From assembly GCA_002011125.2 (NCBI GenBank), contig MTMF02000009.1, forward strand, positions 1,608,989-1,672,988: a stretch of 64,000 nucleotides of DNA, given 5' to 3'. The first letter of the stretch is position 1. Each line of letters opens with the position of its first letter. The notes under the pieces were generated by a model. It saw nothing but the letters and a program-made list of their open reading frames with translations. It made no database searches and had not been told where the DNA came from. Of this stretch, positions 22,889 to 37,381 are shown one piece after another. Source of the stretch: Candidatus Hydrothermarchaeum profundi. GTDB taxonomy: Archaea; Hydrothermarchaeota; Hydrothermarchaeia; Hydrothermarchaeales; Hydrothermarchaeaceae. The position numbers were made by a program, and so were the translations under genes.

Positions 22889-24394
22889 TTGTTAAGACTT
22901 ACTCCTATGCGGATTGCAATCCTAGTTTTTATAATGACCGTAGCAACCGCTTATGCTTATAGTCCCCACGAAGACCCATCAAAACATCCTGGAGCTTACT
23001 GTATAAACTGCCACAAGAGATTTATCGTAGATAACCCTACCGTGGTAGAGATGTTTCCATGTAATAAACAGCCATGTCATAGTTTAGGTGAGGAGGAAAG
23101 GGCCGCTATCCATCTAAAAGAATACATGTGCGAGGACTGCCATGCAGCAATGTCAAAAGGCTTCGACATCCACAACATCCACAGAGGAAAAGTCAACTGC
23201 AAGATATGCCACCTCAGCCCCAGAGGATGGAACTCATCCATAGCAACAATACCAGAGCCAACAAAAAAAATAGAATCAGAAGGCTACACCATCTACATAC
23301 CCGGAGACACCAAATGCCCATACTGCCACAAAACAGCAGAAAAACCAAAAAAACTACACCAAGTACACCAGCCAGTAATCAACACATCCTGCAAGACATG
23401 CCACGGAAGTCTACATAAAGGGGATATCTGCATTAATTGCCATGTGAAATATTCCATCAAAAAGAATTCGGGCTGCATAACTGCATGTCATAGTTTAGGT
23501 GAGGAGGAAAGGGCCGCTATCCATCTAAAAGAATACATGTGCGAGGACTGCCATGCAGCAATGTCAAAAGGCTTCGACATCCACAACATCCACAGAGGAA
23601 AAGTCAACTGCAAGATATGCCACCTCAGCCCCAGAGGATGGAACTCATCCATAGCAACAATACCAGAGCCAACAAAAAAAATAGAATCAGAAGGCTACAC
23701 CATCTACATACCCGGAGACACCAAATGCCCATACTGCCACAAAACAGCAGAAAAACCAAAAAAACTACACCAAGTACACCAGCCAGTAATCAACACATCC
23801 TGCAAGACATGCCACGGAAAAATGAAGCCCTCTATTCTAAAACTATGGGGAATAGAAGCTAAAAAAATTAAGAAAGAGGGTTTATTAGAATCATTAAATA
23901 AAAAAATCTCTAGCATTTTCCAAGCAAAAGTAGATATGAGCTGTAATTTATGCCATGAAGAACTAGTATCAAGTTTCTATACAAGCCCTGTTACTAAAAA
24001 AATCTCTAAAGTACATATGTGGGCTAGCCAAGCAGACATCTTTTTCGGGCCTAACGGAGAACTGAAATATGAAATGGAGTTTACAATTAATAATGAGAGT
24101 ACTGCCTGCCTATTATGTCACAAGATAGAAACAGTTAACGTTTATACAGGGAGCCATAAGATATACTGGAGAAAATGTACTAATGAAAGCTGTCATGGAG
24201 ATATAGCCTCAAATGGTACACGAATCTTCGTGGATGCAGGTAGCTTTAACTTGCCTGCATCAGCTAGAAATAGTCACGGATTATGGATTCAAAAAATAGA
24301 AAAAAAAGGATGGACTCAGGGATTTAGAGAAATCTGCGGTTGTCATCAGATACATCCTACCTACTCAAGAAGCTTAATAACCTCTGTTTTATAA
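22889..24394 (+). CDS. Secreted multiheme cytochrome c with 12 CxxCH, 3 CX3-4CH and 1 CxCH motifs
   Basis: Sec signal peptide (…TAYA|YSP). Heme motifs counted by eye. It has two tandem hexaheme modules plus a C-terminal tetraheme-like domain. Confidence 0.92.
   Translation: MLRLTPMRIAILVFIMTVATAYAYSPHEDPSKHPGAYCINCHKRFIVDNPTVVEMFPCNKQPCHSLGEEERAAIHLKEYMCEDCHAAMSKGFDIHNIHRGKVNCKICHLSPRGWNSSIATIPEPTKKIESEGYTIYIPGDTKCPYCHKTAEKPKKLHQVHQPVINTSCKTCHGSLHKGDICINCHVKYSIKKNSGCITACHSLGEEERAAIHLKEYMCEDCHAAMSKGFDIHNIHRGKVNCKICHLSPRGWNSSIATIPEPTKKIESEGYTIYIPGDTKCPYCHKTAEKPKKLHQVHQPVINTSCKTCHGKMKPSILKLWGIEAKKIKKEGLLESLNKKISSIFQAKVDMSCNLCHEELVSSFYTSPVTKKISKVHMWASQADIFFGPNGELKYEMEFTINNESTACLLCHKIETVNVYTGSHKIYWRKCTNESCHGDIASNGTRIFVDAGSFNLPASARNSHGLWIQKIEKKGWTQGFREICGCHQIHPTYSRSLITSVL
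23073..23819 (+). repeat. Perfect 336-bp intragenic direct repeat (23073-23408 and 23484-23819)
   Basis: CATGTCATAGTTTAGG...GACATGCCACGGAA occurs twice, offset by 411 bp (in frame), with a 75-bp unique spacer. Confidence 0.93.
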
Positions 24395-26100
24395 GTATCA
24401 AGCATATTTTTGATCTCTATCTCGTTTAATTTTCCTTGTGAACTTTCAGTTTCAAAGAATCTTTTTGGAATCCTAATCGCATCTAAATTAAAGCCTTCTC
24501 TTGTCTTAAACTTATATTTTATCTTGAAAATTTCCTTACCTATACCTAAAAATTCCTCTACCTCCTTCTGGATTCCTAAAGAGTTAAGAGCTTTTTCTAT
24601 TCGCTCTGGGGTATAAACCTCCCTTGCGAATAAGCATATCACGAGGGAATTAGCAAAACACCGCCAATAGTCTTCTCTCAATAAATTACTTACAATTTCG
24701 GTCTCTCTTAATTTACCTTTCAATAATTTTTGATCCAAGCTGTATCCCGCATTATCCAGGTGCCCATGTCTCGGACCGGCTATGTGCCCTATAAGATTCG
24801 CCCTGCCCGTATGATAACCAGCCATACCGAGCCCCCCTAACGATAAAGCATATTCCTCTCCACCAAACTTTTGTGCAGCCGCCGTTTCACCTTTAGCTAA
24901 GGCCTTATAAAAATCATTGGGCATCTTAACAATATACTGGACGGCCTTTTTATAGGCCTCCACATTACCAAAAGCCAGATCTATGCCAAGAGTATCATGT
25001 TTAGATATGAGATGGTTTTCATAGGCCTCCGTTGCCCAAGAGAGAGTCGTCCCAGTAGACATTGCATCTAGCCCCAAATGATCCACAGACTCTATTAAAC
25101 TTAGAACTTGCTCTGCCAGAGGTATCCCTAACAAGCTACCTAGCGCGAATATAGGCTCATAATCATAAGGGATCCTTTTGGTCTCGAATTCGAATCCCCT
25201 GGCAAAAGGAATCTGCATTGTAGCTATATGAATACATCCAACCGGACAAGCAGTACATGCAATGTGCTTCGCCATATAATTCTCAGCAAGATGCTCCCCT
25301 GAGATATACTCGGCATACTCAAAAGTAGAAGATTTAAGATTCCTAGTCGGCAAGCCCCTAATCTGATTCAAGGGATTGACATTAATAGCAGTACCATAAT
25401 CATGGTATTTGTTAAGACTATCAGTATTCACAATAACATCATACAACTCTTTATATGCCTTCAAATATCCTTTTTTATCCTCCATAGGTAGGTCTTTTGA
25501 ACCAGAAATCGCAATGGCTTTAAGATTCTTGCTCCCAAATACCGCTCCTAAGCCAAGCCTACCAAAATGTCTGTATGTGTCAACATTTACATTTGCATAT
25601 CTTACTAAGTTCTCTCCTGCGGGACCGATCCTTATTATACTCCTTCTACCTGGAGCGGGTTCTACATCCCTTAAAATCTTTCCCACAGTATACGCTGAAG
25701 ATATACCCCATATCGATCTCGCATCCTTAAAGTAAACTTTTTCATTTTGGATGGATAGATAAACCGGGCGATCACTTTTTCCTTTTATAACAATAGCCAT
25801 GTTTCCAGAGAAACGCATAGCGGCACCTAGCCTACCACCAGCATAGCTCTCGCCTAATTCGTTTGTCAAAGGAGATTTAAAAAGAGCAACCGCCTTAGTA
25901 CATGTAGGAAATGCCCCAGTTAAAGGTCCGGTAGATAGGATTATTGGATTCTCAGGGCTGAGAGGGTCTACGCCTTTGGGACAGTTCTCCATAAGGAGGC
26001 TTATACCTACCCCTACCCCCCCAATATATTTCTCAAAAAGGTCTTTTCTTTCCTCCTGATACACTTCTCTATTTCCAAGGTTAATGTAAAGTACATTCAT
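24361..26100 (-). CDS. Aldehyde:ferredoxin oxidoreductase family (W/Mo-pterin) enzyme
   Basis: Motifs KSPLT...GESYAGG, IGPAGENLV, GRLGLGAVFGSKNLKAI, CTACPVGC, DYE and GLDAMSTG. Confidence 0.93.
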   Translation of the reverse strand: MNVLYINLGNREVYQEERKDLFEKYIGGVGVGISLLMENCPKGVDPLSPENPIILSTGPLTGAFPTCTKAVALFKSPLTNELGESYAGGRLGAAMRFSGNMAIVIKGKSDRPVYLSIQNEKVYFKDARSIWGISSAYTVGKILRDVEPAPGRRSIIRIGPAGENLVRYANVNVDTYRHFGRLGLGAVFGSKNLKAIAISGSKDLPMEDKKGYLKAYKELYDVIVNTDSLNKYHDYGTAINVNPLNQIRGLPTRNLKSSTFEYAEYISGEHLAENYMAKHIACTACPVGCIHIATMQIPFARGFEFETKRIPYDYEPIFALGSLLGIPLAEQVLSLIESVDHLGLDAMSTGTTLSWATEAYENHLISKHDTLGIDLAFGNVEAYKKAVQYIVKMPNDFYKALAKGETAAAQKFGGEEYALSLGGLGMAGYHTGRANLIGHIAGPRHGHLDNAGYSLDQKLLKGKLRETEIVSNLLREDYWRCFANSLVICLFAREVYTPERIEKALNSLGIQKEVEEFLGIGKEIFKIKYKFKTREGFNLDAIRIPKRFFETESSQGKLNEIEIKNMLDTYKTEVIKLLE

Positions 26101-26501
26101 AGTACTTCAAACCTCTCAAGTTCAAGAATATCATGGGGGCAAAATTTAGCACAAGCTCCGCATTGAATACATATTAGCGGCTGATTTAGTTCTTCATCAA
26201 ACTCGATGGCCCCGAGAAGGCAAGCTTCAACGCATTTTTTACAACCAGTACACTTTTCTTTTATAAAATAAAGGCTATCTCTAACTTCAATAGCATACTC
26301 AGGACATGAAGCTACACATGGAGGGTCTTCACACATCCTACATGCAACAATTGCAAATTCACTTTCTATTCCGCCTGTAGTTTTAACATGTATAGCGCTC
26401 CTATCCGTAGAAATAACCCCATATCTCGTTCTAGCACATGCAAAAACGCAACTCATACAGCCGATACACCGCTCTGGATTCTTTACTTTTATCCTCTTCA
26501 T
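26097..26501 (-). CDS. 4Fe-4S polyferredoxin-type electron-transfer subunit of the AOR
   Basis: Motifs CIGCMSCVFAC, CRMCEDPPCVASCP, CTGCKKCVEAC and CIQCGACAKFCP; overlaps the AOR start. Confidence 0.92.
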   Translation of the reverse strand: MKRIKVKNPERCIGCMSCVFACARTRYGVISTDRSAIHVKTTGGIESEFAIVACRMCEDPPCVASCPEYAIEVRDSLYFIKEKCTGCKKCVEACLLGAIEFDEELNQPLICIQCGACAKFCPHDILELERFEVL

Positions 26502-26600: not shown

Positions 26601-27233
26601 ATGAGATTTAGTTCAATTCTTATAGTGATCCTCGTTATAACTGGAGTTTACCTACTTCCATCCGTGCTGGCAAAGTTTGCAGGAACTCACACCGTAGAAG
26701 TTAATCAAACAGGAGGCGTACAACAACTTAGATGCATCGAGTGCCATGAATACGCATTTGATGAATTAAACTCTACAGTTGCACAATCGGTGCTTAAAAA
26801 ACACAAAAATGCTGCAGGAAATTCTACTTACACTTTAAGCTGGCTCCAACGTAGCTTGAACAATCAAACCGACGAAGGAATTTGCATTCTATGCCATGGA
26901 GTAATAAAAGCTTACGAGAATTTGAGTCATACAGGAGTAGTAATGAGAGTATGCACGGATATAAATTGCCATGGAAACAATGAAACTACAAACAACACAA
27001 TGTACAGCGCGGGAAATGTTGGACCAGTTCTTGGAAATACTAACGCCCATGAAGAGTGGTTTGATGATATGGGTTCTTACTTGACTAGACATCAAAATGA
27101 GTCTGGCGCTAACTTAACTCGTGATTATTACACTTGCTTAGGTTGTCATACTTATACTGAAGTGGACATCAGTATTAGCAGAGCTAACTATGATCATTCA
27201 GACCCCTCATACAGCAAAAATAGGTATATTTAA
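26601..27233 (+). CDS. Secreted tetraheme cytochrome c, putative nanowire (ECN-like) subunit paralog
   Basis: Signal peptide ending LPSVLA-KFAGTH; heme motifs CIECH, CILCH, CTDINCH and CLGCH; 9 NxS/T sequons. Confidence 0.85.
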   Translation: MRFSSILIVILVITGVYLLPSVLAKFAGTHTVEVNQTGGVQQLRCIECHEYAFDELNSTVAQSVLKKHKNAAGNSTYTLSWLQRSLNNQTDEGICILCHGVIKAYENLSHTGVVMRVCTDINCHGNNETTNNTMYSAGNVGPVLGNTNAHEEWFDDMGSYLTRHQNESGANLTRDYYTCLGCHTYTEVDISISRANYDHSDPSYSKNRYI

Positions 27234-27339
27234 TCAAACTTTGACGGAAAGTAAGAATTTTTCTAGGATTTTTAAATGAAATTTACTTTTATTTACAAAT
27301 AATAAGAATAAATAAACATCGACACTAAGTCTCTTATGG

Positions 27340-27426
27340 AAAAGTTTAAATATTATTTTGATTATTGTTAATCTAACACCGTCCCTCATCTGGGAGATAC
27401 TATGAGGAAGGAGACGGAGGTGAAAT
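27340..27426 (+). promoter_or_regulatory. BRE/TATA promoter, 5'-UTR hairpin and RBS of the 27428 cytochrome
   Basis: GAAAAGTTTAAATA at ~27340-27353; stem CCGTC-CCTCAT / ATGAGG...GACGG at 27379-27417; RBS GGAGGTGA before the TTG. Confidence 0.55.
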
Positions 27427-27427
27427 A

Positions 27428-28204
27428 TTGAATACGAAATTGTTGATGCTGATGGGAACAATCGTGTTGGGTATATATGTGCTCCCGAGCGTAACAGCAA
27501 AATTTGCAGGGTCCCACACTATGGAGGCTAATACTACGGGAGGCGTTACTGAAGTGCAGTGCGGTAATTGTCATCAGTACATTCAAGACGAGTTGAACTT
27601 ATCGGATGGTAGTCTATCAGATGACGTAGTTACTGCCCATATAACTGCTCTTCAAGATACTAATTATGCCAATGCCAGTAACCAAAGTGCCCCGCTAAAG
27701 ATGGATGCTATTACAGATGCTGATATTACTACTGTGTGTCATCTCTGCCACAAAGTTCAATCAGGAGTTAGTGGAGGACACACCCAAGTAACCATTAGAG
27801 CCTGTACAGATTCAGCGTGCCATGGCTATAACTCAAGCGCAAGCCCATTATATTCGAGTAAACTGAATATAACTGAGAAGCTAGGTTCACCCTATGATGC
27901 CCACAATGTTTGGTATAATGCTATGACAAGCGCATCACCGTATAAAGCAGATGATGTAGATGGATGGGCTGGAGACTTAGTAAACCAAACTGCTGTGAGC
28001 GGTGGGAACTATACGATAGCATTTTATACCTGCTTAGGATGCCATACTCACGTGGGAATCGAATTCTCGCCAATAAACAGGTGGAACGCCTATAGTATCA
28101 ATGTATCTTTCAATAATCAGGGAGCTGCTACTGTAGAGTTTATAAATATGACTAGCACAAATACGACTTACGCCTCTAAGTCCCACGGCTCCGTCTGGAG
28201 ATAA
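27428..28204 (+). CDS. Secreted tetraheme cytochrome c, putative major nanowire (ECN-like) subunit
   Basis: Signal peptide ending LPSVTA-KFAGSH; heme motifs CGNCH, CHLCH, CTDSACH and CLGCHTHV; 11 NxS/T sequons; own promoter and terminator. Confidence 0.87.
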   Translation: MNTKLLMLMGTIVLGIYVLPSVTAKFAGSHTMEANTTGGVTEVQCGNCHQYIQDELNLSDGSLSDDVVTAHITALQDTNYANASNQSAPLKMDAITDADITTVCHLCHKVQSGVSGGHTQVTIRACTDSACHGYNSSASPLYSSKLNITEKLGSPYDAHNVWYNAMTSASPYKADDVDGWAGDLVNQTAVSGGNYTIAFYTCLGCHTHVGIEFSPINRWNAYSINVSFNNQGAATVEFINMTSTNTTYASKSHGSVWR

Positions 28205-28227: not shown

Positions 28228-28270
28228 CCCGGGTGAATATGAACACCCGGGTAAAACTTTTTTATTTTTT
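28228..28270 (+). terminator. Hairpin plus T-tract terminator
   Basis: CCCGGGTG-aatatgaa-CACCCGGG followed by TTTTTATTTTTT. Confidence 0.7.
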
Positions 28271-28304: not shown

Positions 28305-29015
28305 ATGCGGCTGACTAATATGTATAGGGAGTATACAAAGTACTTAGCGTTTGTAATCGCTATTACAGCGGCCTTCGAGTTGGTATACGCATATAATCCC
28401 TACGAAAACCCTAAGACTCACCTAGGAGCAATTTGTATTGACTGCCATAAGCGGTTTAAAGATGTTATCGATAATCCAACTGTATCTTCTTTCAGACCAT
28501 GTTATAAAGATGACTGTCATTTATCTGCAGATAAATGGGGAGGCAAGTCGAAGAGGGAAAGCCTACATCTCTCACGAGAAATCTGCAAAAATTGCCATAC
28601 TGAGATTCACACCACCCATAGAGATCGAGTAAATTGCAGAGTATGCCACATGAGTCCTAGGGGATGGAACTCCTCAAAAGTAAGGATACCTGTATCCAAG
28701 GAACAGAGGGTTTTTGAGGAGATGACCATTACTATACCTGGTAGCGCAGAATGTTCCTATTGCCACTTTAAAATTCCTAGTGCAAAAAACATACACGAGG
28801 TACATTCTCCAGAACTAAAGAATAACCAAACATGCTTAAAATGCCATGGGAAAGTAATCGAGAAGCGGCCTGACCTTATAGCTAAGATGAGTGGTGAAAA
28901 GATTGAAGAAAAGAAAAGAGGTTTAATGAACTCTCGGCCAATAGTTGAATTTATTAGGTTTTATAACCTAATAACGATGCAGCTGATAGAGCTATTTACA
29001 TCAAAGGTGAGATAA
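28305..29015 (+). CDS. Secreted hexaheme cytochrome c, paralog of the repeated module of 22889
   Basis: Signal peptide (…VYA|YNP); heme motifs CIDCH, CYKDDCH, CKNCH, CRVCH, CSYCH and CLKCH; shares VNCxxCHxSPRGWNSS with 22889; C-terminal amphipathic helix. Confidence 0.9.
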   Translation: MRLTNMYREYTKYLAFVIAITAAFELVYAYNPYENPKTHLGAICIDCHKRFKDVIDNPTVSSFRPCYKDDCHLSADKWGGKSKRESLHLSREICKNCHTEIHTTHRDRVNCRVCHMSPRGWNSSKVRIPVSKEQRVFEEMTITIPGSAECSYCHFKIPSAKNIHEVHSPELKNNQTCLKCHGKVIEKRPDLIAKMSGEKIEEKKRGLMNSRPIVEFIRFYNLITMQLIELFTSKVR

Positions 29016-29852
29016 GTGGTTTTTCAACATCAATATCAATATCAGTATCAATATCAAACACAACTAGGATTTCAATATCAGTCTTTTGACCAGCTTATCC
29101 ACGAGCTTCCATTAACGGTTATTGTCCTTTCAATTTTTATAGCTTTGAGCCCTTTTTTTATATATTTACTTCATAGAAGAGGCGTTATTCCATCCGTCAT
29201 GAAACCTATTTTTAAGGCAGGATTACTTGTAAAAACAAAGTTAAGAGATAGAAGCATAAAATCTAGGATAACCGATGAATATACTAGTCTCAGAGATAAG
29301 AGAATAGAGTTCGGTTCGGTCGTATCCTTGGGTTTTTACTTGGCAAACGTCGTATTATTTTTATTGGTAGCTACAAAGATGATATTTTTTGGATTAGTGG
29401 TTTCTCAATCTATGCTTCCTACTCTAGCGCCTGCCGACTTAGTACTTTGTGAAGCTATCTCGATAAATAGTATAGAAAAAGGCGATATAGTTGTATTCTC
29501 GCCTCCAAACGGTGGCCCTATGACAATTCACAGGGTAGTAAGAGTGGGCCCGGATGGAATTAGAACCCGCGGGGATAACGTGGGGACAATGGACCCATGG
29601 ACGCTGAAGAAAGAGGATATCGTAGGTAAAGCGGTCATGGTTAATGGTAAACCCGTTATTCTAAAGAACTTTGGAACATATTTTATGCCTCGAAGAACTT
29701 ATATTCCAGGATCTGATCCCGCGTATGATTTTGTTAGAGGCATGATAAACGCCGTACATAGGTTTGGTCCGATATTTATTATATCTCTTGCTCTCTTAGC
29801 CCTAGTGTTCAGTTTTGGGGGAAAAAAGAAAAGGTATCTAACATATTCTTAA
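29016..29852 (+). CDS. Signal peptidase I (S26, archaeal Ser/His type)
   Basis: Motifs SQSMLPTL, GDIVVF, IHRVV and RTRGDN; extra TM segments. The start is uncertain. Confidence 0.85.
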   Translation: MVFQHQYQYQYQYQTQLGFQYQSFDQLIHELPLTVIVLSIFIALSPFFIYLLHRRGVIPSVMKPIFKAGLLVKTKLRDRSIKSRITDEYTSLRDKRIEFGSVVSLGFYLANVVLFLLVATKMIFFGLVVSQSMLPTLAPADLVLCEAISINSIEKGDIVVFSPPNGGPMTIHRVVRVGPDGIRTRGDNVGTMDPWTLKKEDIVGKAVMVNGKPVILKNFGTYFMPRRTYIPGSDPAYDFVRGMINAVHRFGPIFIISLALLALVFSFGGKKKRYLTYS

Positions 29853-29882: not shown

Positions 29883-30851
29883 ATGAAGCCACAAGAACCG
29901 CCAAAAATTGGGGAGCTGCCTCCAGAGGAACATGCTATTGGAATTTACGCTGGATTAGCTCTGGGAGGGCTTATTCTTGGAACTGGAGCCTCAGTATTAT
30001 TTAGAGACATACTCATGACGTTTACTACAGAGGGTTTGACTTTTAATCTTATCATGATATTCAGGATCTTCCTATTCTTTTTTTCAGCTTACGCGTCTCT
30101 AGCATGCTTTTTCGGGCTATTCAGAATGATAGGGTTACAACGTATGTTAGTGCGGGAAGTTGATAAGGAATTTAAAGACTTTGTGATGTATGCTAGACCT
30201 CTGATAGAAGAGATAATTAAGCAGAGAATCGTGGGTGAAACAATCGCGGAAAAACTTGATAATCTCATACGTTCAACGACAACGGTAGAGGATAAAAGAC
30301 GGTTTGAATATGGCAGACCACTAGACATTAGAGTACCTAAGTGGGGAGAGTTTCTATTGTTCGTCGCACTTTTGGCTAACATAAGTATTGGGCTTTTTAT
30401 TTTTTTAGAGAGGCATCCTTGGGAGCTCGTACCTTATAGTATCATCCTGTTGGCGATTGGCTGGTGGGTAGTGATAGCAAAATACTTCGGTCTTTTATAT
30501 GAGATACGTTCTCAGTATTTTCCAGCATTTTTTATACTTCTCATGCCAACATTATCTATACTCCTTAGAGCTTATCTAGAACTTTATCAGACCCTTTACT
30601 TAGTTTTTATATTTTTATTCCTCTATGTCATTTCAATGTACTTTTACTTCAAATACCTCGCAACTGGAGAGATTCCGCTATTTATAATAAAGAGCTTCTC
30701 GAGAGTAGGCATAGATTTAGAGAAGAGCAAGGAACTACCCTTTCACTTAAAAAAGTATATGCCCCCAGAGAAACCTGAAAAGAAAGAAAAGTTTATTACC
30801 ATAAAAATGAGTGAGAAACTAAAAACGATTTTAAAGAAGTTTAAAAGATAA
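29883..30851 (+). CDS. Uncharacterised multi-pass membrane protein
   Basis: 2 TM segments, a soluble helical loop, then 4 TM segments; lies in the cytochrome operon. Confidence 0.75.
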   Translation: MKPQEPPKIGELPPEEHAIGIYAGLALGGLILGTGASVLFRDILMTFTTEGLTFNLIMIFRIFLFFFSAYASLACFFGLFRMIGLQRMLVREVDKEFKDFVMYARPLIEEIIKQRIVGETIAEKLDNLIRSTTTVEDKRRFEYGRPLDIRVPKWGEFLLFVALLANISIGLFIFLERHPWELVPYSIILLAIGWWVVIAKYFGLLYEIRSQYFPAFFILLMPTLSILLRAYLELYQTLYLVFIFLFLYVISMYFYFKYLATGEIPLFIIKSFSRVGIDLEKSKELPFHLKKYMPPEKPEKKEKFITIKMSEKLKTILKKFKR

Positions 30852-30856
30852 AAAAA

Positions 30857-31789
30857 ATGACCGCTAAAATATTTTTAAAACTCTTAAATCAATATACTGA
30901 AGCTATTAGAAACTACTGTGAAGCATTAGGTTGGGACTACGAGAAATTTAAGACTAGTATTAGTGATGAAGGAATCAGTCACCCCGAGTTATATTTGGAG
31001 GATCCAAATGAGGGGATACTTGACAGGATAAGCCAGTTCTTGGAGCCCAGCAATCAGAGCTCAGTTTTAATTATCTGGGATGATGTGGGGATGGGTAAGA
31101 GTTCGATTAGAGATTTTGTTTCGAAATCCTTAGATGAAGTAGGGAGCTATCATACGGTCGTTATAACTGACCCCAGACTTACTCCATTACAACTTCTTCG
31201 TGCAATCGCGGACCAGCTAGATGCTAAGGCGGATGTTTGGAACGATCGGGGGAAAGTTAAAGAAGCCCTTTGGAAGAGGATGTTGGAAGTTACTGGGCTT
31301 GGGATAAACATAGTTATATGGGTTGATGAAGCAGAAAAGGTGGATAAAAATATAATATCCGAACTAAGAGCTTTAAGCGATATTAAAAGAGAAGACGGCT
31401 CTAAGCTTTGTAAGATTATTCTCTCAGGGACCCCTCGGTTAAAAGAGAAACTAGAGGATTACATCGAGAGCCGCTCAAGCGACGTACTCGCCTTTGACGA
31501 TAGGGCAAGTTTAAATACTCTTCGGCTTAATAAGTGGAAACCAGGAGATATCTATAACTATTGGAATCTTCTAGCTGAATATTGTGGAGGTATTAATCCC
31601 TTCAGTAAAGAAGCCGCTGAAACCGTATGGGAAATAAGTGATGGTAAACCGAGGACAATTGCTCAGATTACTAAGCTTGTTATAAACCAAAAGGCAATGG
31701 ATTATTATAAGAGAGGTGGAGCACCAGAGATAACTCCTGAGTTTATATTGGATACCATCAGAAAACACTTAGGTGAGGGAAGTGCGTAA
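30857..31789 (+). CDS. ExeA/GspA-like AAA ATPase
   Basis: Walker A variant DDVGMGKS, Walker B WVDEAE, and the ExeA-type motifs IILSGTPRL and SDGKPRTI. Confidence 0.78.
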   Translation: MTAKIFLKLLNQYTEAIRNYCEALGWDYEKFKTSISDEGISHPELYLEDPNEGILDRISQFLEPSNQSSVLIIWDDVGMGKSSIRDFVSKSLDEVGSYHTVVITDPRLTPLQLLRAIADQLDAKADVWNDRGKVKEALWKRMLEVTGLGINIVIWVDEAEKVDKNIISELRALSDIKREDGSKLCKIILSGTPRLKEKLEDYIESRSSDVLAFDDRASLNTLRLNKWKPGDIYNYWNLLAEYCGGINPFSKEAAETVWEISDGKPRTIAQITKLVINQKAMDYYKRGGAPEITPEFILDTIRKHLGEGSA

Positions 31790-32255
31790 AAAGTTGGATC
31801 TGCGAGAGAAACTTAGGAAGTTGTCAGAGGAGAAGAGGAGAGAGACAGCATTATTAAGGGCTAAAAAGATCGTAGAAATCCCTCAAAAACCTAAACTACT
31901 TTCAATATCTGAGCTGAGTTTTCCTCAAGGGTCACCTCTTAAGCGCTCCGATATAATTACCTCGAAGACAAGATTAGAGGAGACGCTAGTGCATGAGTCG
32001 AACTCTGAGATAGAGGTAAAATGGACAGTTACTGAGGATGCATATGCTGAAGAGTTTGGCTCTGCAGTTAGAGAGGGATTTACCCAAGTTAAAACACATC
32101 CTCCTACGTATGCTTTTAGGTATAAAGAGGGAGGAATAGTTCTTTCACACTTAGGTGCATACACTTTTGTATTGGGGAGTTATACATTAGAGATTGAAAA
32201 GCTTTCTGAGCTTCTGGAGTTTGCAATCAGGGTTTTAAAGCCTAAAATCACTTAA
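31773..32255 (+). CDS. Hypothetical protein
   Basis: 160-aa ORF overlapping the end of the ATPase gene, with a basic coiled N-terminus. Confidence 0.6.
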   Translation: MREVRKKLDLREKLRKLSEEKRRETALLRAKKIVEIPQKPKLLSISELSFPQGSPLKRSDIITSKTRLEETLVHESNSEIEVKWTVTEDAYAEEFGSAVREGFTQVKTHPPTYAFRYKEGGIVLSHLGAYTFVLGSYTLEIEKLSELLEFAIRVLKPKIT

Positions 32256-32262
32256 GAAATAA

Positions 32263-34737
32263 TTAACTTTCTTCTAAAGCTTTTTCATATTGTTTCTTAA
32301 GAGTCTTATACGCTTTCTTGGATATTTTACCCTCTTCGTATGATTTTCTAAGTTCAGCTAACGATTTCTCTAAGTATTCTCTATCTGGGTTAGATACCTG
32401 ACCGGCTGAATCCTCTGCGATCATCCTAGAGTAGCGAACTGGTGGTATCTCCAGCCTTGTCTCAATAATTATCAGAGGAAGTATCCCAACAGATAAAAGG
32501 ACTATTCCAAGCCAAAGGATGCCTACTCCTGGGATAATTTTTACAGTTAGCGGCACAATCACACTGCCTGGTCTCTGAGTTGCTAATCCCTGAAAGATGA
32601 CATAAACATCAGAGAATAACCCTCGATTGATGTAGACGTGGGTCACTTTCCCAAATTTTCTATCATCAATGGACTCTGCAAGGCCACCTCCTATGTACTT
32701 ATCGTCTTTATATACGCCTAGTTCTATGGCTGTAGCCCACCATCCATCTTGAGTAAGATAGACTTCGATATCATTTACAGCGATGGCATAACCCATTAGG
32801 ATACTTCTTTTAATTCCTTTCTCATCTGGAAAAGTAAAACTCGTAGACATCTCAGCTTCGTATACTGCGCTTATTAAAGTTCCGATGAGAATCAACGCTA
32901 ATCCCAGATGAATGAGGTAGATGCTAGCCTGTCGAAGTTTACCTTTCAGTGTTTTAGGAGAAGATATTCCATGAACTATTCTATAAATAGCTCCCATGCC
33001 GCCAAAAAGAGCCAAGGGTCCTAGAGAATTTATGTAGAGATTCGCGGTAGGTTTCACAATAATTGAAACTGCTGTAGCTATAATTACCCCGGCTGCCATC
33101 CTAGTAAGTTTATCTTTATTTATCTTACTGTAGAGAAGGCAAAATCCCATAGCAAGCATCAGCAATGCAGTAAAAGGGAGGCTCCATTTATTAAAAAACT
33201 CTACTCCTACAGAAATTTTAGCTCCAGTTCTAGCCTGTACTAGCATCGGATAAGTTATACCCCAGAAGGATACGAAAGCTAGTACAGATAAGAGTACAAC
33301 TGCTATATAGAACAGGTTTTCACGTGTTAGAAGCTCTATTTTCTCCTCTTCCTCTTTTTCTTCTAGTTGGACATTTGAATTTTTACTTTTTAAATCTTCA
33401 CCTTCATCCCACACCCTCCTTAAGATTAAGAATAATACGAATGTAAGAGCAAATATAAAGATAGCCTGCCTAAATGTAGGCAATGCACTGCCTCCTTTTT
33501 CGAGGAACTTCTTGTAGAGTGCTAATACAAACTGGGAGGAAATGAATGAGCAGATTAAATTTATAGAGTCTTTATTCACCTGTGTTATCTTACCTTCATT
33601 TCTACGGTAGAAATCTATTCCGAGTATTAATGAAACAAAAGCAATATTCACCATAAGAAATGCTAGCCATGGCCCTGTGGTCGTTTGAGCAAAAGCATGA
33701 ACGGATTCCCACAAGCCGCTTCTCGTTATAAACGTAGCGTAGACTACAAGGAGAAAGGTTATTACTGCTAAAAAGGGCGAGAATATCTTAAAGTCCCCTC
33801 GCCTCTTATACTGTACTGAAGCATGCAATAAGCCGGTCAATGTTAACCAAGGTATAAATGAAGATGTTTCAACGGGATCCCATGCCCAGTAACCGCCCCA
33901 GCCGAGTACTTTATATGACCAGAACCCTCCTACCGCTATGCCTAAAGTAAGGAAGAGCCATGCAAACCTATTCCACTGCTTGCTATATGATTCCCAGGTT
34001 GCCTCTCCCGTAGAAAGGTATACCAAAGCTCCAGATAAAGTAATAGTAACTGCAGCGTATGCGATGAATATTACTGGAGGATGCACCGCCATCCAAGGAT
34101 CTCTAAGCAACGGATTCAAGCCGTTTCCTTCTATAGATGCCACTAACTCTGGTGTGACATCAGGGTATATCTCATATAGGGTCTTAAAAGGGGTTACTAG
34201 GATGGTAAGTGTAATGAAAAAGATGCCTATAAGTAGATTTATAATCTGGGATTTTCTAATAAATGTATTCTCTAATCCGCTCTTCTCCTGTATGATCCAC
34301 GTATATACAAAAATTAACCACGCCCAGAGAAGATATGTTCCCTCCTGTCCTGCCCATACTGCGGAGAGTTTATATACCGTTGGCAGAGTCGTGCTACTAA
34401 ACTGCCATACATAGTTTATAGAGAAATCCGACTTAAGGAAGTAATATGTCAGAAGAATAACTGAAAATGTAAGAAACCCTGTGGTACATCTAATCGCCCA
34501 AGGAATAAGCTTTAGTGCTTTTTTATATCCTTTTATTTCATAAGCTAATAGCATTATTATCGAAGTAGCTGCGAGGAGCCAACTTAAGGCGAGTAAAACA
34601 TTTCCTTCTGATAGTCCTCCAAGACTATAAAGGCCAAAAGGTAATGATGAGAGATTGCTTCTAAATGGCAACAGTAAGAGAATCACAGAGGCAATGACGA
34701 TTAGTAGTGGAAGAATTGGCTTCTTATCTCCTTCCAT
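32263..34737 (-). CDS. ccmF: Cytochrome c heme lyase CcmF
   Basis: Motifs WAGQEG, GLNPLL, HPP, LGWGGYWAWDPVE and TRSGLWESVHAF; short SHOCT-like C-terminal tail. Confidence 0.95.
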   Translation of the reverse strand: MEGDKKPILPLLIVIASVILLLLPFRSNLSSLPFGLYSLGGLSEGNVLLALSWLLAATSIIMLLAYEIKGYKKALKLIPWAIRCTTGFLTFSVILLTYYFLKSDFSINYVWQFSSTTLPTVYKLSAVWAGQEGTYLLWAWLIFVYTWIIQEKSGLENTFIRKSQIINLLIGIFFITLTILVTPFKTLYEIYPDVTPELVASIEGNGLNPLLRDPWMAVHPPVIFIAYAAVTITLSGALVYLSTGEATWESYSKQWNRFAWLFLTLGIAVGGFWSYKVLGWGGYWAWDPVETSSFIPWLTLTGLLHASVQYKRRGDFKIFSPFLAVITFLLVVYATFITRSGLWESVHAFAQTTTGPWLAFLMVNIAFVSLILGIDFYRRNEGKITQVNKDSINLICSFISSQFVLALYKKFLEKGGSALPTFRQAIFIFALTFVLFLILRRVWDEGEDLKSKNSNVQLEEKEEEEKIELLTRENLFYIAVVLLSVLAFVSFWGITYPMLVQARTGAKISVGVEFFNKWSLPFTALLMLAMGFCLLYSKINKDKLTRMAAGVIIATAVSIIVKPTANLYINSLGPLALFGGMGAIYRIVHGISSPKTLKGKLRQASIYLIHLGLALILIGTLISAVYEAEMSTSFTFPDEKGIKRSILMGYAIAVNDIEVYLTQDGWWATAIELGVYKDDKYIGGGLAESIDDRKFGKVTHVYINRGLFSDVYVIFQGLATQRPGSVIVPLTVKIIPGVGILWLGIVLLSVGILPLIIIETRLEIPPVRYSRMIAEDSAGQVSNPDREYLEKSLAELRKSYEEGKISKKAYKTLKKQYEKALEES

Positions 34738-34739
34738 CC

Positions 34740-35174
34740 TTACACCGTTTCATTTAGCTGAAGTTCATACTTAGAAGGACACTTAACAAGTATCTGTTCT
34801 GCCTTAAATTGGTTTGGTGACACAAGTGAACCTATAACCACAACATCTATTTCTGACTCGCTTCCTAGATCCTTACCTACCGGGAAATTACTAGGTAATA
34901 CGCCTTCATAGGTCACCTGTATTTGTGAAACGTCATCAGTTAATACAAAAGTCAATGTGTTTGGAACCCAGCGTACGGTTTCTTCTACCACCCGCCCTTC
35001 TAACTGTATCTGCCTATTCAGGAACTTATCTGGACTTGATACTACTTCGCTTACCGACTTATAGGGATTAACAAACCCAGATAAAGCACTGAAGCCTATC
35101 GCGACAAAAAGGATGATAATGAGTGCTCCAAAACCGACCTTTAATTTTTTGGCTGTTTTTTTATCCACCAACAT
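34740..35174 (-). CDS. ccmE: Heme chaperone CcmE, CxxxY type
   Basis: N-terminal TM segment, YEGVLP, and C-terminal KCPSKY. Confidence 0.92.
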   Translation of the reverse strand: MLVDKKTAKKLKVGFGALIIILFVAIGFSALSGFVNPYKSVSEVVSSPDKFLNRQIQLEGRVVEETVRWVPNTLTFVLTDDVSQIQVTYEGVLPSNFPVGKDLGSESEIDVVVIGSLVSPNQFKAEQILVKCPSKYELQLNETV

Positions 35175-35284
35175 CACCTACTTTTAATCTTCCTAATCCT
35201 CCCATCTATATACACCATGTATAATATCAGTACCGTCCACAAGATGGTTGCAACAATAAATATGCTGGTGTAATTTTCCATCAT
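35174..35284 (-). CDS. ccmD: CcmD-like small membrane protein (36 aa), not in the ORF track
   Basis: MMENYTSIFIVATILWTVLILYMVYIDGRIRKIKSR: a single TM segment plus basic tail, between ccmC and ccmE, with a TGATG overlap onto ccmE. Confidence 0.7.
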   Translation of the reverse strand: MMENYTSIFIVATILWTVLILYMVYIDGRIRKIKSR

Positions 35285-35294
35285 ATTCCTCCTA

Positions 35295-35963
35295 TCAAAT
35301 TGCCTTTGTTGTTGTATCCTCTAACTCCTGAAGTTTTACTTCAAGCCAAAGGAGATATCCGTATAGTAAAAGGACACCGACAATCATAATAATTAAAACA
35401 GGCCTCATTTGGGGTGAGAGGCTAAACTCCTTCAATCTTGGATGAAGAGAAAACCACATCGTAGTGGATATATATGTTAGAGGGATGCCTGCATACCCAA
35501 ACACCCCTAAGATAGCTGAGAGTCTTGCCTTAGATTCTTTATTTACGATAGATGATCTTAAAGCAAAATAGGAAGCAAATATGAACCATAAAATAAGTGT
35601 AGTTGTTTCCCTTGGATCCCAATTCCAATAACTTCCCCAAGCAGGTTTTGCCCAGACCATTCCGGTAAATAAAGTTAATGAACAAAAAATTATCCCCAAC
35701 TTTGCAGAACTCGACGCGACTCTATCCCATTTAAGGTCTCTCGTCTTGAGATACATTAAGCTAAAGACTAATGTCACAGTAAATGCGGTATACGTAGTAG
35801 CATTTATGGGTATATGGAAGAACACATTCCTATAAAGTTCTTCCATGGGTTTTGTTCTAGACTCTATGGGTCCAAAAACCACTAATGCATTATACATGCC
35901 AAAAAGAACCATTATATATACTGTGCCAAGAAGCGCTAGTGCATAGCCTCTTTTAAATTCCAT
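35295..35963 (-). CDS. ccmC: Heme delivery protein CcmC
   Basis: FFHIP, the WWD motif WAKPAWGSYWNWDPRET, and LHP. Confidence 0.95.
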   Translation of the reverse strand: MEFKRGYALALLGTVYIMVLFGMYNALVVFGPIESRTKPMEELYRNVFFHIPINATTYTAFTVTLVFSLMYLKTRDLKWDRVASSSAKLGIIFCSLTLFTGMVWAKPAWGSYWNWDPRETTTLILWFIFASYFALRSSIVNKESKARLSAILGVFGYAGIPLTYISTTMWFSLHPRLKEFSLSPQMRPVLIIMIVGVLLLYGYLLWLEVKLQELEDTTTKAI

Positions 35964-35969
35964 TTAAAG

Positions 35970-36638
35970 TCACTCCTCAAGGGCATAGTCAAAAGTCAAA
36001 AGAGATATAACGGCCATGATAACAGTATACGCTATTATTATTTTAAACTCGCCCATCGTATTTAAAAACGTTTCTCCTTCTACTAAAACTTTCTTTAAAG
36101 CTGATATGGAGGATATTATAATAGGGAACAACACTGGAAAAAGGATAACAGGTAACAGCAGTTCTCTAGCTCGAGCATTAAGTATTAATACTGACATAGC
36201 AGAGCCTACAACTGCAAAACCGAGGTTTCCCAAGGTGAGGTAAAAAAAAGATAAGGCTATACTTCCCGCTACAGGGAAATTAAAGAAGAGTAGGAATATT
36301 GGAAACGATATAACCTCAATTAATACAAGCAAAGAAAAATTGTAAGCGACTTTACCCAGCAAGATGTCTGTTCCACTAACCGGAGAGAGTTTTAACCCCT
36401 CGAGAGTTCCTAGATCTTTTTCTCTAGTAAAGGCCCTTGACAGGCCCAGCATGCCTGAAAAAATTAAAATAAGCCATAAAAGACCTGGCCCGATGTCTGG
36501 GACAGCTGCGATAAAAGCGCCTACAATATAGCTAAACATTAAAATTGAAAGAAGAGCAAAAAGAAGCATGAAATTTATAGTATGCTTTGTTCTAAACTCT
36601 ATTAAGAGGTCCTTCTTAGCTATTTTTAGCGCCTTCAT
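35970..36638 (-). CDS. ccmB: Heme exporter permease CcmB
   Basis: Motifs KDLLIEFR, REKDLGTLEGL and RELLLPVILFP. Confidence 0.93.
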   Translation of the reverse strand: MKALKIAKKDLLIEFRTKHTINFMLLFALLSILMFSYIVGAFIAAVPDIGPGLLWLILIFSGMLGLSRAFTREKDLGTLEGLKLSPVSGTDILLGKVAYNFSLLVLIEVISFPIFLLFFNFPVAGSIALSFFYLTLGNLGFAVVGSAMSVLILNARARELLLPVILFPVLFPIIISSISALKKVLVEGETFLNTMGEFKIIIAYTVIMAVISLLTFDYALEE

Positions 36639-37381
36639 TACTCTACTCCCTTCTCGGTAAGTCTTATGAAAGTCTCTTCCAAAGTCTCAACTCCTTTAAT
36701 TTCTTCGAGTGTGCCACATGCTTTGACCTCCCCTCCGTCAAGGATGCAAGCTTTATCACAAAGTTTTTCAGCTTCATCGAGATAATGAGTCGTAAGCAGG
36801 ATCGTAGTATCCTGTAGGCTAAGCTCTTTTATCCACTTGTAGAAAATGTGCTTACCTTGAATATCCAATCCAGCGGTTGGTTCATCTAACAATAGTATTT
36901 TCGGGGCGTGTATTAAGGCCCTAGCAATAGCCAACCTTTGTTTCATTCCTCTCGAGAAGGTGCCGACAAGTTCGTTTCCTCTATCCTCTAAATTTACCAT
37001 TTTTAGTAATGCTTCCGCATTGTTCCTATTAACTTCAAAAAGATCAGCATAGAAGTGAAGATTTTCCCTAGCTGTAAGCTCATCATATAAAAAGGGATTA
37101 TGCGAGACTACCCCGATAAGTTTCTTTACTTCCTCCGGTTCTTCCTGTAAATCTAGGCCGCTTATTATTATTTCTCCGGATGTGGGTTTAAGTAAGGTAC
37201 TTAATATCTTTATCAAAGTAGTTTTTCCAGCACCATTTGGCCCAAGAAGAGCAAAAGATTCTCCTTCAGCCACAGAAAAACTTACCCGATTAATGGCTAA
37301 GTGGCCACCGAACTCTTTGCACACCTCTTTTAGCTCTATAATAGCCAATCTATCACCGTCGGTTATTTTATTTGATGTCAA
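36638..37381 (-). CDS. ccmA: ABC ATPase CcmA
   Basis: Motifs GPNGAGKT, FSRGMKQR and LLLDEP; first gene of the ccm operon. Confidence 0.9.
   Translation of the reverse strand: MTSNKITDGDRLAIIELKEVCKEFGGHLAINRVSFSVAEGESFALLGPNGAGKTTLIKILSTLLKPTSGEIIISGLDLQEEPEEVKKLIGVVSHNPFLYDELTARENLHFYADLFEVNRNNAEALLKMVNLEDRGNELVGTFSRGMKQRLAIARALIHAPKILLLDEPTAGLDIQGKHIFYKWIKELSLQDTTILLTTHYLDEAEKLCDKACILDGGEVKACGTLEEIKGVETLEETFIRLTEKGVE

Follow-up and report, generated by a model that had tools for sequence, protein, structure and literature searches.

Introduction

To our knowledge, structures have been solved for just two cytochrome filaments of archaea. The structure of the AvECN filament, the extracellular cytochrome filament of Archaeoglobus veneficus (PDB 8E5G), was reportedly published by Baquero and co-workers in Cell in 2023. 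In the descriptions that are available, AvECN (UniProt F2KMU8) and PcECN are tetrahaem subunits that build insulated filaments of bis-His haems. Descriptions of the AvECN filament call it a homopolymer, and the accessible part of one report states that the distal His comes from another subunit for three of the four haems (PMC12203936). Here, we analyzed a stretch of 64,000 nucleotides from the uncultured archaeon Candidatus Hydrothermarchaeum profundi (positions 1608989-1672988 of contig C9, MTMF02000009.1; the metagenome-derived genome has 2.19 Mb in 19 contigs), which is called the window throughout. It encodes two tandem tetrahaem proteins, designated 26601 and 27428 after the first positions of their genes, which very probably belong to the AvECN family.

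In Bacillus, the filament locus tapA-sipW-tasA includes an ER-type signal peptidase of its own. A comparable arrangement is described for the haloarchaeal Tafi cluster, with the pilins TafA/TafE (major and minor), the signal peptidase TafD and the helper TafG (available text of PMC12337348). A tetrahaem homologue of AvECN, ECN-Mv of 'Ca. Methanoperedens vercellensis', shares 29% identity with AvECN; it was abundant in the electrode medium, and its filament structure was still pending according to the accessible part of the report, which also calls the physiological role of archaeal cytochrome filaments unresolved (PMC13748539). The secretion and assembly of cytochrome nanowires have likewise been called unanswered in the available text of a preprint (bioRxiv 10.1101/2025.10.22.684050).

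Similarity to AvECN in sequence and fold

A word-index search retrieved 39 relatives, and those with a name stem from metagenome-assembled genomes (MAGs) of Candidatus Hydrothermarchaeales. Two alignments were used, namely A1 with 26 rows and A2 with 129 rows, the latter including AvECN-type sequences. When the A1 profile was compared with all PDB sequences, chain A of 8E5G was the sole significant match (E 7e-12; the next match had E 0.36). The match is collinear in two stretches, profile positions 6-105 with chain positions 7-120 and 179-235 with 174-236, and these comprise the N-terminus through a haem motif as well as haem 4 and the C-terminal beta region. On its own, 26601 matched 8E5G with E 0.055 in the segment LPS..F.G.H-CxxCH.

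The fold was compared with a model generated by AlphaFold2 (AF2). The model based on the 26-row alignment had a predicted local distance difference test score (pLDDT) of 51 and was discarded, and that of 27428 with the 129-row alignment, a haem-free monomer, reached a pLDDT of 82.2 and a predicted template modelling (TM) score of 0.74. In a Foldseek search of the PDB, 8E5G was first (E 9e-3, probability 0.94, TM-scores 0.29/0.33), followed by a match with E 0.64. The VIA search, which is independent of Foldseek, was run against 48,161 chains and also placed chain A of 8E5G first (Z 5.2, root mean square deviation 5.0), aligning 172 of 220 residues (model 28-255 with chain 31-244). It was the single chain with Z of at least 5; the next, with Z 3.2, matched the signal helix only. 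Because sequence and fold both single out 8E5G, and the matches span the whole mature protein, homology with AvECN was accepted, and membership of 26601 and 27428 in the AvECN family is very probable. The sequence-only reading had proposed a likeness to AvECN, and this likeness was supported. No match to PcECN (8E5F), OmcE, OmcS or OmcZ was present in the PDB profile search, the Foldseek rows or the top 50 VIA rows, and a distant similarity is possible. A homodimer prediction for mature 27428 with A2 and four of the eight needed haems scored 0.00 in both runs with an uncertain fold of the partner, and it carries no weight either way.

Like the pair, AvECN is a tetrahaem protein, with a length of about 260 amino acids (aa). 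Its signal peptide has the similar end LP-S-x-x-[AS], followed by x-F-x-G-x-H and, about 15 residues further on, by the first CxxCH. In both cases, an N-glycosylation sequon lies a few residues past the N-terminal His, and a beta-rich C-terminal region follows the last haem motif. However, the third haem motif of AvECN is CxxCH instead of Cx4CH, and FLGQH replaces the FAGSH of the Hydrothermarchaeum long paralog. The spacing of haem motifs 2 and 3 also differs, and the middle of the proteins could not be aligned by the hidden Markov model (HMM). In addition, the glycosylation potential of AvECN is far sparser than the 9-11 sequons of the pair, and its host belongs to the Archaeoglobi, whereas that of the pair is Hydrothermarchaeota-like. 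ECN-Mv resembles 26601 and 27428 in being a tetrahaem member of the AvECN family named by sequence similarity, without a structure. Judged by the Methanosarcinales-type loci L014-L024, it is part of an LPST..F.GQH branch, whereas the pair forms a separate branch. OmcE and OmcS of Geobacter sulfurreducens and PcECN are alike in concept, in that the available descriptions portray insulated filaments in which c-type haems are bis-His ligated and His comes from neighbouring subunits, but they have no detectable relation to the pair in sequence or fold and serve as a working analogy only.

Architecture and putative expression signals of the two genes

The two proteins are paralogs with 35% identity over 220 columns (BLASTP, E 1e-37). 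Their N-termini, LLPSVLAKFAGTH in 26601 and VLPSVTAKFAGSH in 27428, contain a signal peptide in which an n-region and a hydrophobic core precede the end LPSV-x-A, followed by KFAGTH in 26601 and KFAGSH in 27428. The n-, h- and c-regions and the V-x-A site at positions -3/-1 of the pair align with the AvECN precursor, as judged by sequence only, and cleavage of 26601 is predicted after A24. One database copy of 27428 begins at an ATG six codons after the TTG; the TTG start is supported because the basic n-region is kept in homologues. A prepilin-type (class III) signal peptide was considered and rejected, as the hydrophobic core lies ahead of the conserved cleavage region and not behind it, and as the AvECN structure begins only past this region.

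The haem motifs are C45xxCH, C95xxCH, C118x4CH and C179xxCH in 26601, and C45xxCH, C104xxCH, C126x4CH and C202xxCH in 27428. Four further His residues are aligned between the paralogs, H30, H68, H110 and H150 in 26601 with H30, H71, H118 and H159 in 27428. N-glycosylation sequons number 9 in 26601 and 11 in 27428. These counts were matched by none of 2000 residue shuffles, and both proteins rank at the 99.6th percentile among 1340 long open reading frames (ORFs) of the same genome. In the AF2 model, residues 211-251 of 27428 form a C-terminal beta hairpin with strands 211-228 and 234-251, whereas 26601 ends soon after haem 4 and lacks this hairpin. Neither protein had an above-threshold match in Pfam or NCBIfam; for 26601, Pfam yielded only sub-threshold generic cytochrome c7/c3 matches. 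The tandem tetrahaem paralogs with a common motif order, the four extra aligned His, the sequon counts of 9 and 11 and the beta-rich C-terminal arm of 27428 had all been proposed in the sequence-only reading, and all of them were confirmed. The coordinates of the features are compiled in Table 1.

Table 1. Features of the cytochrome gene cluster and its surroundings (positions in the window)
Feature	Position	Strand	Remarks
15-haem-motif cytochrome	22889..24394	+	501 aa; upstream of the ECN pair
Short ECN-family paralog 26601 (very probable family member)	26601..27233	+	210 aa, ATG start
Spacer between the paralogs, AT-rich	27234..27427	+	194 bp; T-rich
TATA-like box upstream of 27428, TTTAAATA	27345-52	+	consensus match by reading
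Shine-Dalgarno (SD) motif of 27428, GGAGGTGA	27416-23	+	4 nt before TTG; consensus match
Long ECN-family paralog 27428 (very probable family member)	27428..28204	+	258 aa from TTG start
Candidate terminator 3' of the 27428 stop	28228..28270	+	hairpin CCCGGGTG / CACCCGGG, then T6-A-T6
Hexahaem c-type cytochrome	28305..29015	+	236 aa
S26 signal peptidase I paralog, archaeal (endoplasmic reticulum (ER)-type)	29016..29852	+	278 aa; TIGR02228 57 bits, cut-off 51.85
Polytopic membrane protein	29883..30851	+	322 aa; about six transmembrane segments by eye
AAA_22 P-loop ATPase	30857..31789	+	310 aa
ccmF, ccmE, ccmC, ccmB, ccmA (System I cytochrome c maturation, complete)	32263..37381	-	convergent with the ECN cluster

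The sequence-only reading had also assigned a promoter, a strong ribosome binding site (RBS) and a terminator of its own to 27428. Such signals are present as sequence matches: a TATA-like box, an SD motif, and a hairpin with a T tract. The hairpin has an 8-bp GC stem with arms at 28228-35 and 28244-51, and T6-A-T6 occupies 28258-70. It was not flagged by an automatic terminator scan, because the T run begins 6 nt past the stem. Matches to sigma-70 promoters were at chance level in an automatic scan (8 found, 6.8 expected), and a search for sequencing runs turned up no RNA run that contains the locus. 26601 is preceded by a TATA-like box at 26573-80, some 20 nt ahead of its start codon, and has no SD motif, and its transcript could be leaderless. 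Therefore, the promoter and RBS signals tell little about the relative abundance of the two paralogs.

Conserved residues in the family

In A1, the four haem motifs as well as H30, H71, H118 and H159 (27428 numbering) are invariant in 26 of 26 rows. In A2, the haem motifs are invariant with the exception of the haem 1 residues C45, C48 and H49, for which conservation is 90% or more; among the four additional His, H159 is invariant and H30, H71 and H118 are conserved to at least 90%. Residues 15-31 of A1 read G-I-Y-V-L-P-S-V-T-A-[KR]-F-A-G-S-H-T and are mostly kept in 24-26 of the 26 rows, whereas the mean column identity across the A1 proteins is far lower, at 35%. The ends of signal peptides are not normally conserved to this degree. 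Family members have 7-15 sequons with a median of 12, and the sites at N35 and N245 are found in 24 of 26 rows.

A profile search of 1.84 billion cluster representatives yielded 241 clusters (50% identity) at E <= 1e-3, including 114 at E <= 1e-10 and 47 at E <= 1e-30. Distant members have the N-terminal signature LP-x4-5-F-x-G-x-H, in most cases as LPST.S[LM]FAGQH with 4-6 CxxCH motifs. The phylum to which one Methanosarcinales-labelled MAG belongs was sampled with 401 genomes; matches at E <= 1e-8 occurred in 64 of them, with up to seven per genome and often in tandem. At four loci with close AvECN-type genes (L058, 6978-13318 on the minus strand, L072, L075 and L077), a tetrahaem gene is followed by paralogs with LPS..F.GQH and 5, 9 or 10 haem motifs, and cytochromes of 1300-1800 aa with 24-36 motifs also score as family members. 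Far bigger cytochromes thus reuse the N-terminal arm module.

To place the two paralogs, a maximum likelihood tree of 19 rows was used, which comprised the window pair, 13 ORFs of the Hydrothermarchaeota-type loci L004-L013 (E < 1e-30, 190-300 aa) and four outgroup rows; a 373-aa ORF of L013 and a weak one of L005 were left out. 26601 is found in a clade of five short-type proteins (5/19 rows, from the window and four related loci) with a support of 97/94. The short form thus constitutes an old and conserved lineage. Orthologues of 26601 are kept in three other genomes at 47-50% identity, which led us to reject the idea that it is a decaying duplicate. The short form is absent from at least three otherwise complete related clusters (L007, L009 and L012) and is therefore accessory. 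Since 26601 keeps all haem motifs and all distal His, it could in principle give as well as receive ligands, unlike a cap that ends a chain; its sequence bears no mark of a cap, which argues against such a function.

Neighbouring genes and conservation of the cluster

The pair is followed by the genes for a hexahaem cytochrome, an S26 signal peptidase, a membrane protein with about six transmembrane segments (called the 6-TM protein here) and an AAA_22 ATPase, and by a convergent set of cytochrome c maturation genes (Table 1). The genome contains three S26 matches, the best of which (115 bits) lies elsewhere; the S26 protein of the cluster is thus an extra paralog. Its gene begins with a GTG that abuts the stop codon of the hexahaem gene, and the N-terminus of the protein (29016-29110) has a Q/Y-rich low-complexity region, QHQYQYQYQYQTQLGFQYQ, before the first transmembrane segment; this extension aligns in several related loci. 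The 6-TM protein has no family in Pfam or NCBIfam, and as no Pfam family was matched at E <= 0.1, no TafG-type domain was found. Comparison with a protein atlas gave scores of at most 0.80 with TM-scores below 0.33 and no usable lead. Three STT3/AglB matches above the cut-off are encoded in the genome, and 22 of its ORFs have at least two haem motifs, with as many as 73 and 36 in two of them.

The conservation of this arrangement was quantified in 21 loci from a pattern scan, with one genome per species and ORFs searched by iterated HMM. An S26 gene lies beside ECN-family genes in 17 of the 21 loci, and in the other four the contig breaks off at the ECN gene or close to it. The 6-TM gene occurs in 13 loci and the AAA_22 gene in three (60-63% identity). 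The hexahaem gene is found in nine loci, all of which are among the ten Hydrothermarchaeota-type loci L004-L013. Eight of the eleven Methanosarcinales-type loci L014-L024 have two tandem ECN genes and then S26, which is followed by the 6-TM gene in seven cases. A second set was taken from the phylum sample: in 21 of the 64 positive genomes, chosen for a sufficient distance of the best match from the contig start, the roughly 19 kb surrounding this match were used. Here, S26 and the 6-TM gene were each found in 7 of 21 loci. One of these loci, L058, contains a 261-aa ORF that is a close orthologue of AvECN (E 7e-68 to 8E5G), with an S26 gene and a 6-TM homologue directly before it and five more ECN-family paralogs after it. 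The association of S26 with ECN genes is thus recurrent across distant archaeal groups, though not universal. Five of five further genomes, and six of six with the present one, have one or more S26 copies in addition to the ECN-linked gene. A common origin of the linked peptidases is plausible but not proven.

Tafi and tapA-sipW-tasA are similar to this cluster in that subunits exported by Sec or Tat are encoded beside an extra S26 paralog and an accessory membrane protein, and in having paired subunit paralogs. They differ in that their subunits are jelly-roll pilins and not haem proteins, and no donor-strand mechanism is implied for the pair.

Several further features of the surroundings were noted. 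A 160-aa ORF at 31773-32255 (plus strand) has no Pfam match and shares 17 nt with the end of the AAA_22 gene. Genes for an aldehyde:ferredoxin oxidoreductase and a poly-ferredoxin (24361-26501, minus strand) diverge from 26601, and both sides share an intergenic region of 99 bp. Outside the window, contig C9 carries two giant reading frames, 916461-928232 (3924 aa, 73 motifs) and 936603-942728 (2042 aa, 36 motifs). The ORF at 22889-24394 contains a perfect tandem duplication at 23073-23783, with two 300-nt copies that are 100% identical at a spacing of 411 nt; the duplicated unit is a multi-haem block of about 137 aa. This 411-bp duplication is either a very recent event or an assembly artefact. 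The C-terminal part of the same ORF (about 23933-24220) matches positions 43-136 of the ECN profile, from haem 1 to haem 3, with E 4e-13. The module consists of CxxCH, then CxxCH-x9-H-x7-Cx4CH and then CGCH in place of the last CxxCH, and the FAGSH arm is missing. It is a speculative thought that it might be a base or adaptor that docks ECN subunits; no orthologue with such a C-terminus was seen in the related loci.

Discussion

Taken together, the pair probably represents Sec-exported, N-glycosylated tetrahaem cytochromes of the AvECN family, of which the long form polymerises. For the filament formation itself by a family member at this locus, an expectation drawn from homology with AvECN, we lean only slightly towards a positive answer. 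The precursors would be exported and cut after the near-invariant G-I-Y-V-L-P-S-V-T-A, probably by the S26 paralog encoded two genes downstream, as linkage and conservation suggest, and this cut would expose [KR]-F-A-G-S-H as the conserved start of the mature protein. The strong conservation around the cleavage site, together with the linked peptidase, suggests a specific processing that exposes an N-terminal His arm, for which the Tafi cluster is a precedent in archaea. The four haems would be attached by the adjacent Ccm system, all genes of which are present, and many of the Asn sequons may be glycosylated by one of the three AglB/STT3 homologues. By homology, the long paralog 27428 would polymerise head-to-tail outside the cell, and several of H30, H71, H118 and H159 would ligate the haems of neighbouring subunits, as reported for AvECN. 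The product would be a continuous insulated chain of haems for extracellular electron transfer. The short paralog 26601 would be a conserved accessory subunit, either a minor or an alternative one of the filament, and the gene neighbourhood makes the hexahaem cytochrome, the 6-TM protein and the AAA_22 ATPase candidate partners for electron feeding and assembly. Extracellular electron transfer has been predicted in Hydrothermarchaeota in the accessible part of an earlier study (PMC6759336), and the cytochrome-rich genome fits this prediction.

Some of the observations weigh against this explanation. Searched alone, 27428 had no match among the PDB sequences. The likeness to AvECN in the model is remote and its strength modest, with a structural identity of about 15-16%, TM-scores of 0.29-0.33 and Z 5.2, and the Z of 5.2 alone could reflect a common arrangement; the fold similarity counts only in combination with the sequence match. 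As the middle of the protein was not aligned by the HMM, a one-to-one match of haems 2 and 3 to their AvECN counterparts is uncertain. Moreover, relatives with 5-10 haem motifs bear the same N-terminal motif. AvECN is the only proven filament in this large family of 241 clusters, and therefore not all members need to polymerise. In 14 of the 21 loci from the phylum sample, S26 and the 6-TM gene are absent within about 9 kb. Finally, in a FastTree tree of 35 S26 sequences, one branch separates 10 unlinked from 25 linked copies, but this split is weakly supported (local support 0.51).

The main rival builds on several of these points. It holds that both proteins are secreted tetrahaem carriers, or reside in the S-layer space, and are monomeric relatives of AvECN that do not polymerise but relay electrons between the membrane and the giant multihaem cytochromes. 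In favour of this, the family is big and diverse, its tandem paralogs have 3-10 motifs, the similarity to the single known filament is remote, and the many other cytochromes of the genome need partners. However, the four distal His and the F-x-G-x-H arm are shared with AvECN-type sequences, and three of the distal His of AvECN act in trans. A dedicated signal peptidase and very dense glycosylation characterise surface filaments of archaea, for which the Tafi cluster is an example (available text of PMC12337348), and the long form retains the AvECN-like C-terminal beta region. We therefore regard monomeric carriers as rather unlikely.

If the long form polymerises as we propose, the contribution of the short form has to be considered. 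The sequence-only reading had taken 27428 as the abundant subunit and 26601 as a minor, cap or initiator subunit. Such a division, in which 26601 would cap, initiate or anchor the same filament as TapA does with TasA or the minor with the major Tafi pilin, is consistent with the two conserved paralog lineages, among them the well-supported short clade (5/19 rows, 97/94), and with the tandem ECN genes before S26 in 8/11 loci L014-L024. In Tafi clusters, as far as they are described, a dedicated signal peptidase likewise accompanies major and minor pilins, and the AvECN-like C-terminal hairpin is confined to the long form. On the other hand, the short form is complete in haem motifs and distal His and has nothing that would terminate a chain, it is missing from the complete clusters L007, L009 and L012, and the AvECN filament is described as a homopolymer. 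The differences in RBS and promoter are weak, since 26601 may be leaderless. On balance, this assignment of roles is doubtful. Two distinct homopolymeric wires for different conditions, as with OmcS, OmcE and OmcZ of Geobacter, are very improbable: each gene has its own promoter-like box with a T-rich spacer between them, neither protein lacks a haem motif or a ligand, genomes as a rule hold several ECN paralogs (up to seven matches) and Ca. Methanoperedens vercellensis is described as making more than one filament type (accessible part of PMC13748539), but the short form lacks the C-terminal hairpin that is present in AvECN and that may be needed for packing.

Beyond the pair, we tentatively suggest that the whole module, that is, ECN subunits, the extra ER-type S26 peptidase and the 6-TM protein, joined in Hydrothermarchaeota by the hexahaem cytochrome and the AAA_22 ATPase, could be the maturation and assembly apparatus of AvECN-type nanowires, with the short paralog as a dedicated minor subunit. 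If this is true, the peptidase would recognise GIYVLPSVTA|[KR]FAGSH and free a His arm that ligates the haem of a neighbour, so that cleavage would license polymerisation. AvECN homologues in other archaea are already known, for example ECN-Mv, and the module of peptidase, 6-TM protein and paired subunits may be new. No paper that joins ECN subunits to a signal peptidase was found in the literature search; the AvECN structure paper and its supplements lay outside this search and may already describe the neighbourhood. With this locus, the AvECN family very probably reaches into a Hydrothermarchaeota-like lineage in which giant multihaem cytochromes abound. The gene set of signal peptidase, 6-TM protein and paired subunit paralogs recurs in at least three archaeal groups, and it thereby offers concrete candidates for the processing and assembly of these cytochromes.

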